DNA from: an uncultured bacterium
GTDB lineage: Bacteria; Chloroflexota; Dormibacteria; Aeolococcales; Aeolococcaceae
Length of the DNA: 64,000 nucleotides
Reading direction: 5' to 3'
Assembly: GCA_963847225.1 (NCBI GenBank)
Contig: CAWJYZ010000003.1
Location: 819,763-883,762, forward strand
Shown here: piece after piece, positions 1,296 through 7,375 of the stretch
How the letters are laid out: each line of letters begins with the position of its first letter
Numbering within the stretch: the stretch's first letter is position 1
The notes under the pieces: model-generated
What the model saw: only the letters and a program-made list of their open reading frames with translations
Databases searched by the model: none
Told to the model about the DNA's origin: nothing
Translations under genes and position numbers: made by a program

Positions 1296-2153
1296 ATGAG
1301 CAAGGTATGGTTCGTGACCGGCTCGTCCCGCGGCTTCGGCCGCAACTTCGTCGAGGCCGCCCTGTCCCGCGGCGACAAGGTGGCCGCAACGGCCCGGAAT
1401 ACCGGACACCTTGATGTGCTAGTCGCCGCTTATGGCAACTCCGTGCTGCCGCTTGAGCTGGACGTGACCGACAAGGCCACGGTCTTCGATAGCGTGACGC
1501 GGGCCAAGGAGCACTTCGGCCGTCTCGACGTCATCGTGAACAACGCTGGCTACGGCCTGTTCGGCGCGATCGAGGAACTGACCGAGCAGCAACTGCGAGA
1601 TGAGCTGGAGACCAACGTGTTCGGCGCTCTGTGGGTCATTCAGGCCGCGCTGCCCCACCTGCGCGAGCAGGGCGCAGGGCACATCATCCAGATGTCCTCC
1701 ATCGCCGGGCTCATCGCAATGCCGATCGGCGGCGGATACCACATCGCCAAGTGGGCCCTCGAAGCCCTGAATGAGTCCCTCGCCCAAGAGGTCGCCGGCT
1801 TCGGCATCAGGGTGACGCTGGTCGAGCCCAGCGCCTTCGCCACCAGGTCCGGCGGCGAGATACCAAATCCACTCTCTGACGGCATCCAGGCGGAGGCCGA
1901 CCCCATCTACGACGGTTTCCGCCAGAGCATCGCCGGGTTCATGAAGAAGAACATGGAGGCCGGTGACCCGGTTGCCGCGGCCCAGGCACTCCTCAAGATC
2001 GTCGACTCCGAAAACCCGCCCCTGCGGGTGTTCTTCGGCGCCGAGGGCTACCAGATAGTCCAGCAGGTCTACGCGAACCGCCTCGAGACCTGGGCCCATT
2101 GGCAGGGCCTTTCGGCAGAGGCGCACGGTGAACTCGATCCAAAGACCCGATGA
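1296..2153 (+). CDS. Short-chain dehydrogenase/reductase
   Basis: TGSSRGFG, NNAG and YHIAK catalytic motif; RBS GAAAGGAA before ATG 1296. Confidence 0.93.
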   Translation: MSKVWFVTGSSRGFGRNFVEAALSRGDKVAATARNTGHLDVLVAAYGNSVLPLELDVTDKATVFDSVTRAKEHFGRLDVIVNNAGYGLFGAIEELTEQQLRDELETNVFGALWVIQAALPHLREQGAGHIIQMSSIAGLIAMPIGGGYHIAKWALEALNESLAQEVAGFGIRVTLVEPSAFATRSGGEIPNPLSDGIQAEADPIYDGFRQSIAGFMKKNMEAGDPVAAAQALLKIVDSENPPLRVFFGAEGYQIVQQVYANRLETWAHWQGLSAEAHGELDPKTR

Positions 2154-2468
2154 CCCTCGGTCTTAGCTCTTGAAGGTCCGAGCCAGGGTCTAACGCTGCC
2201 TTTTGGGGCTCTCCTGTCGTTTCCGTGGGTGAGTTGAGAGCCGCCTGAACGAGAACACGCCGCTCGCACCTACCCTTTCCGGCTGGAAGATAACGGAACC
2301 CATGTTCGGGAGGTACCATCCGCATCCTGACCTCGGCAGCTAACTTTCTAAAACTATCATTTTCTCCAGTTAGTCAACATGGAAGGACCGACCAACGCGC
2401 AAGATCGTGGGTTGGGCGGGCAGACGAAGCACGCCCCGCGCAGAGCCACAGGCGAGGAGGCCGGTCCC

Positions 2469-3590
2469 ATGAGTGAGCGTACGAGGTTCGTCGGACTGGA
2501 TGTTCATGCGGCGACGATCGCCGTTGCCGTCGCCGAGGACACCGGATGCGTCGAGGAGCGCGGCACCATCCCGAATGAGGCGCAGGCGGTGAGGCGGTTG
2601 ATCGGCCGGCTGAGCGAGCCGGGGGTGCGACTGTCGGTTGCCTACGAAGCGGGCCCCACGGGATATGCTCTCCACCGCCAGCTCAGCGGTCTCGGGGTGG
2701 AGTGCATGGTCGTGGCTCCCTCGTTGATCCCACGGACACCCGGAGACCGGGTGAAGACGGATCGCCGCGATGCCCTGAAGCTAGCACGCCTCCTGCGAGG
2801 TGGGGATCTGACGGCCGTATGGGTTCCCGATCAGGCGCATGAGGCCCTGCGCAACCTGGTGCGGTCGCGCGGAGACGCCAAGGCCGACGAGCTCCGTGCC
2901 CGGCACCGGCTCAGCAAGTTCCTGCTGCGTCAGGGGCTGCGGCCGCCGGCGGGTGTCAAGCCGTGGTCACTCAAGCACGAGGCCTGGCTGAACCAGCTGC
3001 GCTTCGAGCAGGCGCCCGACCAGGTCGTGTTCGCGGACTACCGCGCGGTCGTACGCACCGCCACCGAGCGCGTTCGGCGGCTCGAGGCTGCACTCCTCCA
3101 AAGCGCGTCGTCGAGTTCGCAAGTGCGCACGATCGCTGCGCTCCAGACGCTCCACGGCGTCGGCTTCCTGAGCGCGGTCACCATCGTCGCCGAGGTCGGC
3201 GACCTTCGCCGGTTCCGCAGCGCGCGCCAGCTCATGGCCTACGCAGGACTGGTGCCGAGTGAATACTCCAGCGGCGCCTCTCGCCAGCGTGGACCCGTCA
3301 CGAAGACCGGCAACGGTCATCTACGCCATGTCCTCGGCGAAGCGGCGCACCATGCCCGACATACACCCTCGTCGAGATCGGCAGCACGCGCGCGGCGAGA
3401 CGGGGTGCCGCACGACCTCGCCGACATTGCCTGGCGCGCGCACCAGCGGCTCCATGACCGCTACCGCCATCTCGGCGGCCGGATCGGCCGCCCCAAGGCC
3501 CTCACCGCAGTCGCTCGAGAGCTGGCCGGGTTCGTTTGGGCGATCGGGCAGCGGCTCGATCAGTCGGTGACGGAGGGTGCGGCGGCGTGA
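2469..3590 (+). CDS. IS110-family DEDD recombinase/transposase
   Basis: VGLDVH, YEAGPTG, KTDRRDA (DEDD) and GLVPSEYSSG (catalytic Ser); RBS GAGGAGG. Confidence 0.96.
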   Translation: MSERTRFVGLDVHAATIAVAVAEDTGCVEERGTIPNEAQAVRRLIGRLSEPGVRLSVAYEAGPTGYALHRQLSGLGVECMVVAPSLIPRTPGDRVKTDRRDALKLARLLRGGDLTAVWVPDQAHEALRNLVRSRGDAKADELRARHRLSKFLLRQGLRPPAGVKPWSLKHEAWLNQLRFEQAPDQVVFADYRAVVRTATERVRRLEAALLQSASSSSQVRTIAALQTLHGVGFLSAVTIVAEVGDLRRFRSARQLMAYAGLVPSEYSSGASRQRGPVTKTGNGHLRHVLGEAAHHARHTPSSRSAARARRDGVPHDLADIAWRAHQRLHDRYRHLGGRIGRPKALTAVARELAGFVWAIGQRLDQSVTEGAAA

Positions 3591-3593
3591 TGA

Positions 3594-3793
3594 TTGGGTG
3601 CTGGCGCAGGTCGCGGTCGAGGCCGGCAGAGTCTCCGAGAACCCTCGACGCTAACTATGCGATCGTGAACTCGCGCCTTTTAGTCCGAGGCAGCTCGGTG
3701 AACGGCTCACTGTCATGCGGCTCGACCCGCGCATACCAGGGTGATCACCGTCGCCACCCCCTGCTCTCGGCCGCGTCCTGCGCCCGCACCCAA
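3594..3793 (+). ncRNA. Putative bridge/seek RNA of the IS1111 element
   Basis: Outer stem 3594-3610/3777-3793 encloses two stem-loops whose internal loops match the target (CGCTAACT, TTAG) and the donor end (CATACCAG). Confidence 0.75.
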
Positions 3794-3858
3794 CGCCATC
3801 GGCAAGCCTTCAAGGAGTGGCTGCGCCACGGTCTTGACATTACCTTCCATACCAGTTA

Positions 3859-4342
3859 GTGGCTGCCGCCTCCCTCCCCTTGTCATGGTCGGCCATGGCG
3901 TCACTGCCCCAGGTGCCCAGACCGCTCAGTCCGGCCCCTCGTCGCCACACGAGCGAGGCTATGCGACTGGCGGCCTACACATTTCCGTTACCCGCCGGCT
4001 TCGAGCAGGAGGCGATGGCCACTGCCACCCCTGAGGTGCAGGTGCTGTCCACAACCCCGGTCGCTGTCATCGCCGTTGCGTCCGGACGTATGGGGAGCCT
4101 GGGAAGCCGGCGCTTACTACAGCGACTTCGATGTCGGCCACCATGTCTGGGGGATCACCTCTCGAGGCACCTTCCCAGGCCTGTCTTGCTCAGCACCACC
4201 AATCGGGGCAACTGAGCCTCCCAATTGCGCCGGTCCGCCGAACACATCCATGGGGATATTCCTTGACTACAGCTCCGGGGCGTTCGTCATGTCTGAGACG
4301 CCTGCCCCTGTTCCGTCCCCGTCGCTGCTCCAGAGTTCCTAA
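3859..4342 (+). pseudogene. Fragmented hypothetical (possibly secreted) protein
   Basis: Two overlapping ORFs (3859-4215, 4076-4342) that appear to join by a frameshift; begins right at the IS end. Confidence 0.4.
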
Positions 4343-7200: not shown

Positions 7201-7291
7201 CTTGGGACGATGCGTTTCGGTGCGGCTTGGCGCGGCTCCGCGTATTCAGGCGCGTGGGTCCTGTGGCCTCTAACTAAGATGCGTCTGGTGC

Positions 7292-7335
7292 GTCTGGGGG
7301 ACCAGGGGTCCGCGGTTCGAGTCCGCGCTCCCCGA
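7292..7335 (+). other. 3' half of tRNA-Pro(GGG): att duplication marking a genomic island boundary
   Basis: GTCTGGGGGACCAGGGGTC CGCGG-TTCGAGT-CCGCG CTCCCCGA gives the anticodon loop, variable loop, T-arm and 3' acceptor strand; the 5' half is absent. Confidence 0.8.
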
Positions 7336-7375
7336 CTGGATTTATCAGGAGGTGCTCTCGGAGGGGGTGAGCATC

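Follow-up and report, generated by a model that had tools for sequence, protein, structure and literature searches.

A probable RNA-guided IS1111-type element with readable guide loops and a repeated TTAG at its ends in an uncultured soil bacterium

RNA-guided recombination by IS110/IS1111 elements was first described in 2024. In the IS1111 group, seekRNAs have been demonstrated experimentally for ISEc11, ISKpn4, ISPa11 and ISPst6 (Siddiquee et al. 2024, PMC11187229), and the same account describes transposases of 330–350 aa with the motif GL-P----S(t)G, as well as extensions beyond the inverted repeats of 7 nt on the left and 3 nt on the right. The sub-terminal repeats are given as 7–17 bp (PMC11208160), usually 11–13 bp (PMC11187229), and bridge RNAs are predicted in the right end of 93.0% of the IS1111 elements in ISfinder (PMC11208160). 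In IS1111 seekRNAs the segment matching the top strand lies 5' of the segment matching the bottom strand, whereas IS621 has the reverse order (PMC11187229); the catalytic residues of IS621 are D11, E60, D102, D105 and S241 (PMC11208158).

The element that we describe here occupies positions 2372–3855 of the window (the whole stretch of 64,000 nt that was analysed) and is a complete IS1111-type element of the IS110 family. It is very probably a copy whose transposase is guided by a two-loop RNA from its 3' end and which recombines at AG, with a specificity that in practice amounts to about TTAG. Like ISEc11, ISKpn4, ISPa11 and ISPst6, it has a DEDD transposase with the GL-P----SG motif, 7/3 extensions, a long non-coding region downstream of tnp, a top-strand-complementary segment 5' of the bottom-strand one, and matches that overlap at the insertion point; unlike them, it has a transposase of 373 aa (vs. 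330–350), repeats of 8 bp (vs. 11–13), a very short common flank (TTAG) and an apparent 4-bp repeat that the 7-nt extension rule, as set out for those elements, does not cover (PMC11187229). With IS621 (Durrant et al. 2024, PMC11208160; Hiraizumi et al. 2024, PMC11208158) and ISCro4 (PDB 9t56) it shares putative target and donor loops, each of which would read both strands around a common core dinucleotide, and the catalytic D, E, D, D and S align; it differs from IS621 in that its RNA lies 3' rather than 5' of the gene, its loops have the opposite strand order, its core is AG rather than CT, the repeats are long, and the right-donor guide is barely detectable.

Ends, transposase and copies of the element

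The element and its immediate borders comprise the following features:

2370..2373, + strand: left-flank TTAG, of which AG (2372-2373) is the left copy of the core dinucleotide
2372..2378, + strand: left terminal extension AGTCAAC, 7 nt (core AG plus TCAAC), with equal spacing in all end-defined relatives
2379..2386, + strand: left sub-terminal inverted repeat ATGGAAGG, pairing with 3843-3850
2453-2459, + strand: Shine–Dalgarno sequence GAGGAGG, 9 nt upstream of the ATG
2469..3590, + strand: transposase gene, 373 aa, with a DEDD RuvC-like domain and a Tnp domain with the catalytic Ser
3834..3839, + strand: TTGACA, a −35-like hexamer, 16 nt from the right end
3843..3855, + strand: right sub-terminal inverted repeat CCTTCCAT (3843-3850), ACC and the right core AG (3854-3855)
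3856..3859, + strand: TTAG beyond the right end, which is target DNA on the canonical reading, or else 4 bp that the element carries or duplicates

The inverted repeats are perfect over 8 bp, at the short end of the IS1111 range, and are set in from the left end (2372) by 7 nt and from the right end (3855) by 3 nt plus AG; the 7/3 extensions of the IS1111 group, AGTCAAC on the left and ACC before AG on the right, are also found in relatives. As in other IS1111 elements, the longer non-coding part is at the 3' end, with 265 nt (3591–3855) vs. 97 nt upstream of the start codon. At the same distance from the right end as TTGACA, relatives carry TTGAC or TTGAA; joined to CAACAT of the left end, TTGACA would build a promoter at the circle junction, of the kind stated for the IS110/IS1111 families (PMC11187229).

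Within the ORF at 2379–3590 the true start is most likely the ATG at 2469, because of the Shine–Dalgarno sequence 9 nt upstream and because relatives align from that Met, residue 31 of the ORF. The translation carries the two IS110 domains, PF01548 (E 5.7e-18) and PF02371 (E 1.9e-22), and scores 245.8 bits with NF033542 ('IS110 family RNA-guided transposase', NCBIfam), for which the cut-off is 140. A PDB sequence search returned ISCro4 (9t56, E 8.8e-10) and IS621 (8wt6, E 5.6e-7), the similarity to the IS621 protein being mostly confined to the Tnp domain. D11, D98 and D101 (the KTDxxDA pair) and S268 (the SG serine) align with the catalytic residues of IS621 and ISCro4; E60 aligns in the ISCro4 alignment; and the translation contains GLVPSEYSSG, an instance of the IS1111 motif. 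At 373 aa the protein falls outside the IS1111 length range of 330–350 aa, and its identity to the nearest plasmid-borne relatives is at most 50%.

The host genome (3.49 Mb in 11 contigs, 70% G+C) contains four full copies that are 99–100% identical and one further copy split by a 2.7-kb insertion encoding a large serine recombinase; it also has a left-end fragment of 97 nt and L007, a relative with 74% identity. At each of the six left junctions the sequence is AG|TCAACATGG, with TT before it in five (hence TTAG) and GG in the sixth (GGAG), and all five right junctions read CATACCAG|TTAG and then unrelated sequence. The window element is apparently one of several recently active copies, and intact. 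A Pfam search of the ORFs flanking the L002 copy gave no matches. On the points covered so far the initial annotation is borne out: it had called a complete IS1111-type element at 2372–3855 with a DEDD+Ser recombinase (PF01548, PF02371 and NF033542, with catalytic residues aligned to IS621 and ISCro4), sub-terminal repeats at the 7/3-nt spacing (ATGGAAGG, 2379–2386; CCTTCCAT, 3843–3850), and an AG core at both ends, which recurs at 6/6 left and 5/5 right junctions of the host genome.

The structured 3' end and its putative guide strands

We propose that the interval from the stop codon to the right inverted repeat encodes a guide RNA of ~200 nt, in which a long outer stem would enclose two internal loops: loop 1 would bind the target, loop 2 the element's own joined ends, and recombination would take place at the AG dinucleotide. 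By analogy with IS621 and ISEc11, this RNA would be produced and the transposase would bind it, the intermediate would be a circle that has a junction promoter, and the chemistry would be that of those systems. The parts of the predicted RNA are:

3594..3621, + strand: outer stem, 5' strand, pairing with 3766-3793 (MFE)
3635..3647, + strand: P1 5' strand CCGAG (3635-3639, pairing with 3694-3698) and P2 5' strand CCUCG (3643-3647, pairing with 3686-3690)
3648..3656, + strand: loop 1 5' strand ACGCUAACU, putative right-target guide, the reverse complement of AG-TTAG-CG; AGTTAG stands at 5/5 right junctions
3659..3674, + strand: loop 1 terminal hairpin GCGA/UCGC, in which 5-6 of 7 pairs are changed on both sides among relatives
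3675..3683, + strand: loop 1 3' strand GCCUUUUAG, putative left-target guide, in the same sense as left flank plus core (..TTAG)
3698..3754, + strand: donor-binding loop, with base stem 3698-3704/3749-3754 and hairpin 3717-3720/3727-3730
3708-3716, + strand: donor-binding loop 5' strand, a weak right-donor guide candidate
3732-3739, + strand: donor-binding loop 3' strand with CAUACCAG, putative left-donor guide, in which CATACCAG equals the right end

Folding of the 3' non-coding end gives −125 kcal/mol (z −4.2), and 0/200 shuffles are as stable. The outer stem is complementary at 16/17 positions in 3594–3610/3777–3793 and reaches ~3621/3766 in the MFE; all 23 of 23 relatives, despite differing sequences, form an equivalent outer stem of 20–34 pairs in theirs. 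P1 and P2 close the target-binding loop and show compensatory changes, for example CCAC/GUGG in L041. Relatives were gathered at 38 loci (one genome per species) and at 79 loci from metagenomes. A core alignment of 23 sequences supports five helices: 96.2% of cells are paired vs. 33–50% when the partner is slid by 1–3 columns; nine pairs are changed on both sides vs. 0–2 in the slid controls; and 0/500 shuffles attain the observed pairing and covariation values. In an independent metagenome set, whose 62 distinct rows were those fitted to the RNA model, a choice favouring the model, 97.8% of cells are paired vs. 28–51% when slid. In 74 of 83 sources the model has a match directly 3' of the transposase gene, and eight of the nine others have 137 nt or fewer past the ORF match. 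A conserved structure with two internal loops is therefore found beside the transposase gene, as is characteristic of bridge RNAs and seekRNAs. The model also matches plasmid elements of E. coli (weakly, 29 bits) and Alicyclobacillus (clearly, 83 bits), whose guides both fit their own flanks; in the family genomes it matches only in G022, in a 5'-truncated copy with a flank that does not fit the guide. An Rfam search of 2000–4300 at E up to 10 returned chance-level matches only and no bridge-RNA family.

For comparison of guides with flanks, element ends were set independently of the loops, from the inverted repeat and the 7/3 rule. In elements with ends so defined, the loop 1 5' strand reads as AG plus the right flank in reverse complement: in 19 guide classes 80 of 114 right-flank positions match, vs. 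34.9 ± 5.4 when permuted (0/100,000 as high), and the first four flank positions are perfect in 13 of the 19; in the metagenome set, at least five contiguous nt from the core are shared by 39/44 distinct cognate pairs vs. 106/1,774 non-cognate ones. The poor matches (9/19 classes with fewer than 5 of 6 positions, 5/44 pairs with fewer than 5 nt) come from copies that carry indels or have decayed, or from sites that match poorly. The loop 1 3' strand ends in NTAG in relatives and matches left flank plus core over 3–8 nt (8 in L107), and its N, which is T, C or G, covaries with the left flank. The clearest test of the guides is the 74%-identical relative L007: relative to the window element, its loop 1 5' strand changes from CGCTAACT to CAGTGCCT (CTAA to GTGC) and its right flank from TTAG to GCAC; its loop 2 changes from CATACCAG to AATATCAG and its right end from CATACCAG to CATATCAG, the same C-to-T change being found in loop 2 and right end alike. 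The target loop of the window element itself matches 6 nt on the right (AGTTAG) and 4 nt on the left (TTAG), as the seekRNA scheme predicts, subject to the single-TTAG empty site described below.

On the donor side, the loop 2 3' strand repeats the last 7–8 nt of the right end across elements, in the variants ATATCAG, ATACCAG (the window element and L130, the latter with ATACCAG in both loop 2 and right end), ATAAGAG and ATGAGAG; an alphaproteobacterial clade has one constant mismatch between the two. The putative left-donor guide CAUACCAG thus equals the right end and covaries with it, whereas the right-donor candidate pairs over only 3–4 nt. When such a guide was sought in the loop 2 5' strand, 3–4 nt at most were pairable (at best 3/4 nt), the candidates being GGUC vs. 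GACC in the alphaproteobacterial clade, GAC or GAUU in others, and CACU or UGUC in the window element. In the loops the top-strand match stands 5' of the bottom-strand match.

It could be argued that the non-coding end is a mere structured 3' UTR or terminator and that the protein chooses the site, as a simple terminator scan calls a hairpin with a U-run at 3658–3675. The U-run is not conserved in relatives, however, and in ~60 distinct elements the loop strands change together with flanks and ends, the stems being retained; this covariation makes a UTR or terminator an inadequate account, and we regard it as highly improbable. An RNA-guided recombinase with a bispecific RNA, apparently intact, which the initial annotation had proposed, is by comparison well supported by the structure and by the guide–flank and guide–end covariation. 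Its details also agree with ours: the ~260-nt 3' non-coding region (265 nt, structured), the outer stem 3594–3610/3777–3793 (16/17 positions), the stems CCTCG/CGAGG and GCGA/TCGC, and the loop strings CGCTAACT (3649–3656), GCCTTTTAG (3675–3683) and CATACCAG (3732–3739), the last identical to 3848–3855, are all present; of the checks it suggested, folding with covariation gave z −4.2 and five helices that covary among relatives, and the loop sequences do change together with the flanks across elements.

The repeated TTAG and the target site

The copies have in common only xxTT-AG on the left (5/6) and AG-TTAG on the right (5/5). The letters past the right TTAG vary among them (TG, GC, CC, CT, AT), and the flanks there are unrelated (TGGC, GCAC, CCCA, CTGA, ATAC). 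A target of 'about CGCTAACTAA', as initially annotated, is therefore not supported: the copies share only TTAG or AG beside their ends, and the final CG is not conserved. The expectation that other copies would share flanks holds for TTAG (5/6 left, 5/5 right) and fails for the letters beyond.

Both flanks of the L002 copy (G000:C3:760168-761658) are 87% identical to one place in the same-genus genome G001, which is the sole clean uninterrupted site readable. The flank alignments overlap there by 8 bp, and the site reads ...CATATCGTTAGGCACAAGG, with a single TTAG, and not TTAGTTAG; a paralogue in G001 reads CGTTACGCAC, such that the uninterrupted ortholog and paralogue carry one TTAG or TTAC. 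The empty site TT-AG-TTAG that had been reconstructed earlier thus fails at this locus. TTAG stands on both sides in 5/6 copies and once in the one clean empty site; 4 bp would therefore be carried or duplicated by the window's element. A plain duplication of 4 bp at the target site was considered and is ruled out, because in the L004 copy GGAG precedes the element and TTAG follows it.

The other loci gave no clean empty site. The window copy has no flank synteny in 40 relatives; the L003 locus in G001 is not contiguous, with ~2.75 kb extra between the flank homologues; the L004 flanks lie on different contigs, with no empty site there; and the L005/L006 locus gave a weak, ambiguous match (GTTGA|ATACCC in G001 vs. 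TTAG...TTAG in G000). A search for sequencing runs containing this stretch listed no RNA run; Logan contigs of four soil DNA runs were fragmentary, none spanning a junction, an empty site or a circle junction. L007 and the L002 copy lie at the same position of paralogous sequences, TTAG|GCACA(A/T)GG..TCCTGCC, and this position is a perfect site for the L007 guide.

TTAG is rare in the host genome (951 occurrences, both strands), and TTAGTTAG is therefore expected only ~0.13 times, by arithmetic from the TTAG counts; five unrelated pre-existing TTAGTTAG sites are implausible. Two unoccupied TTAGTTAG sites are nonetheless present vs. the ~0.13 expected (window 7270–7277; G000:C3:1225435), one of them exactly at the point at which the homology of a GGDEF gene to G001 and G003 ends, and they would fit canonical excision footprints. 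As a control, the relative L016 in genome G041 has as its target a 95-nt repeat with >40 copies; 8/10 unoccupied repeats read CTAG|TGGA, that is LT-AG-RT, as the L016 guides predict.

How the RNA-guided element comes to have TTAG on both sides can be read in several ways. On a canonical reading the element ends at 3855, forms the circle ...CATACC-AG-TCAAC... with the junction CCATACCAG|TCAACATGG, and inserts only into pre-existing TT-AG-TTAG, the single TTAG of G001 being a species difference. This agrees with homology to the relatives, in which the right end is the repeat plus 3 nt plus AG, the loop 2 guide ends on that AG, and the loop 1 guide is AG plus the right flank; it also agrees with the canonical control sites in G041, with copy L004 (GGAG|IS|TTAG), and with the two unoccupied TTAGTTAG sites where ~0.13 are expected, one at the GGDEF homology break. 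Yet it demands a very rare 8-mer at each of at least five unrelated loci, does not sit with the one TTAG or TTAC of the L002-site ortholog and paralogue, and leaves unexplained why the two ends of the window copy are identical over 8 bp (CCAGTTAG); we consider it rather unlikely. A second reading is a 1,486-bp unit (2374–3859) with TTAG at its right end, which would account for the single TTAG in G001, the unrelated right flanks and burst into unrelated sites, and L004, in which the left 4-mer would come from the target and the right TTAG from the donor. In donor and target alike, exchange would then follow the AG of TTAG, the target would be only (TT)AG, the circle junction would read CCATACCAG-TTAG-TCAACATGG, and the loop 1 5' strand would pair mainly with the incoming donor strand (AGTTAG), in the manner of an extended handshake, instead of reading the right flank. 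Precedents are the handshake pairing with core-adjacent donor positions known for IS621 (PMC11208158) and, in ISEc11, an apparent 4-bp duplication that was reassigned to the element (PMC11187229). Such a unit would, however, put the loop 2 guide CAUACCAG 4 nt out of register with the crossover and the right repeat at a spacing of 7 nt, where every relative examined has 3 nt; no 4-nt insertion sets loop 1 apart from its homologues; and the two TTAGTTAG sites would be chance. We hold this reading as a tentative possibility, somewhat short of an even chance.

A further proposal starts from the guides themselves, both of which appear to spell the same four letters, TTAG; specificity in practice is low, essentially TTAG. 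Since left flank plus core read TTAG and the right flank reads TTAG, a lone TTAG would be readable in two registers 4 nt apart; our judgement is about evenly balanced on whether it satisfies either guide. The element might in that case toggle between two forms, a canonical one and one in which TTAG is carried or duplicated; nearly any TTAG could serve as an insertion site, canonical excision would leave TTAGTTAG as a footprint, and the element would not be bound by the narrow site specificity seen in its relatives; both kinds of CCATACCAG-TCAACATGG circle junction, with and without TTAG, would be expected. We consider such toggling conceivable rather than likely; if true, it would be a natural case of relaxed, 'register-degenerate' bridge-RNA targeting. 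Like IS492 and other IS110-family elements recorded with flanking 'duplications', the window element has a short sequence on both sides of which one copy may belong to the element or circle (PMC11187229); unlike in those cases, as described there, the guide and repeat geometry of its family puts the crossover 4 nt inside the flanking repeat.

Significance for the IS1111 family

In conclusion, the window element conforms to the structural definitions apart from its longer transposase and short repeats, and it is a good new example of an RNA-guided IS110/IS1111 element, not a new mechanism, because the system was already described in 2024. Our analysis contributes a well-documented element of the IS1111 type, apparently active and with guide loops that can be read, from an uncultured soil bacterium, together with a clade-wide alignment of ~100 relatives (Chloroflexota, Alphaproteobacteria, Terriglobia and plasmids) in which the guide strands track target and donor. 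For engineering it offers a further ortholog whose core is AG and whose guides are short; the low specificity that it has in nature makes it a poor ready-made tool. The 4-bp TTAG discrepancy is the one point of wider interest and, if real, is relevant to the way in which guide register determines where bridge recombinases cleave.

Left flank of the window copy

The left flank of the window copy of the IS1111-type element carries two features:

Window 2196-2285: a stretch of ~85 nt, a short way upstream of the element
Window 2333-2360: a sigma-70-like promoter match (TCGGCA-16-TATCAT, 9/12), directed into the window copy

The ~85-nt stretch recurs with 81-83% identity at at least six places in the family genome G020 and also in G025, with some of these occurrences falling at contig ends. 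Its word depth in soil contigs is ~100x, whereas nearly all of the element stays at or below 16x, the exceptions being three bins of the element at 41-105x. A comparison of the stretch with Rfam returned nothing matching. The stretch represents an uncharacterised repeat or small element.

Element copies and unoccupied sites in the host genome

The genome that holds the window (G000) contains further copies of the element, together with a 74%-identical relative:

G000:C3:703652-707814 (L005/L006, outside the window): a copy that a 2.7-kb insertion, located around transposase nt 640, divides in two; this insertion carries a large serine recombinase gene (Resolvase, Recombinase and Zn_ribbon_recom domains)
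G000:C11:25556-25657 (L008): a 97-nt left-end piece of the element, ending exactly at the transposase start codon
G000:C1:16460-17878 (L007, the relative) and G000:C3:760168-761658 (L002, a copy): insertions at the same position within paralogous host sequences

The position common to L007 and L002, TTAG|GCACA(A/T)GG..TCCTGCC, fits the guide of the relative.

The empty target site predicted by the canonical reading, TTAGTTAG, also occurs unoccupied in this genome. A tRNA-like 3' fragment (window 7292-7347) is located 15 nt downstream of one such site (window 7270-7277, minus strand); it shares 95-100% identity with sequences in G001-G003, but ARAGORN called no tRNA in it. A second unoccupied site (G000:C3:1225435, L088 ~801-808) marks the exact point where a GGDEF-type gene loses homology to its counterparts in the same-genus genome G001 and in G003; this site is possibly the scar of a rearrangement or an excision.

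Targets and junctions of relatives

The target of the L016-type element is a ~95-nt repeat starting TGGACAAAATCCGACGGAAAGGTCC, present in more than 40 copies in G041, the genome of L016 (e.g. L178-L188); CTAG precedes most of these copies. An alphaproteobacterial relative has a miniature derivative of ~190 nt that consists of both inverted repeats only (L039 ~1900-2100; L021 1275-1504, minus strand). A full-length copy carries this derivative, inserted in reverse orientation, within its target-binding loop, where the palindromic CTAG of the guide-coding DNA is the insertion point.

Four further relatives (L034, L038, L062 and L063) have UU in the right-target guide opposite the core and AA at the right junction, whereas AG is found both at the left junction and in the donor guide; the donor core is therefore kept at the left and the target core at the right.
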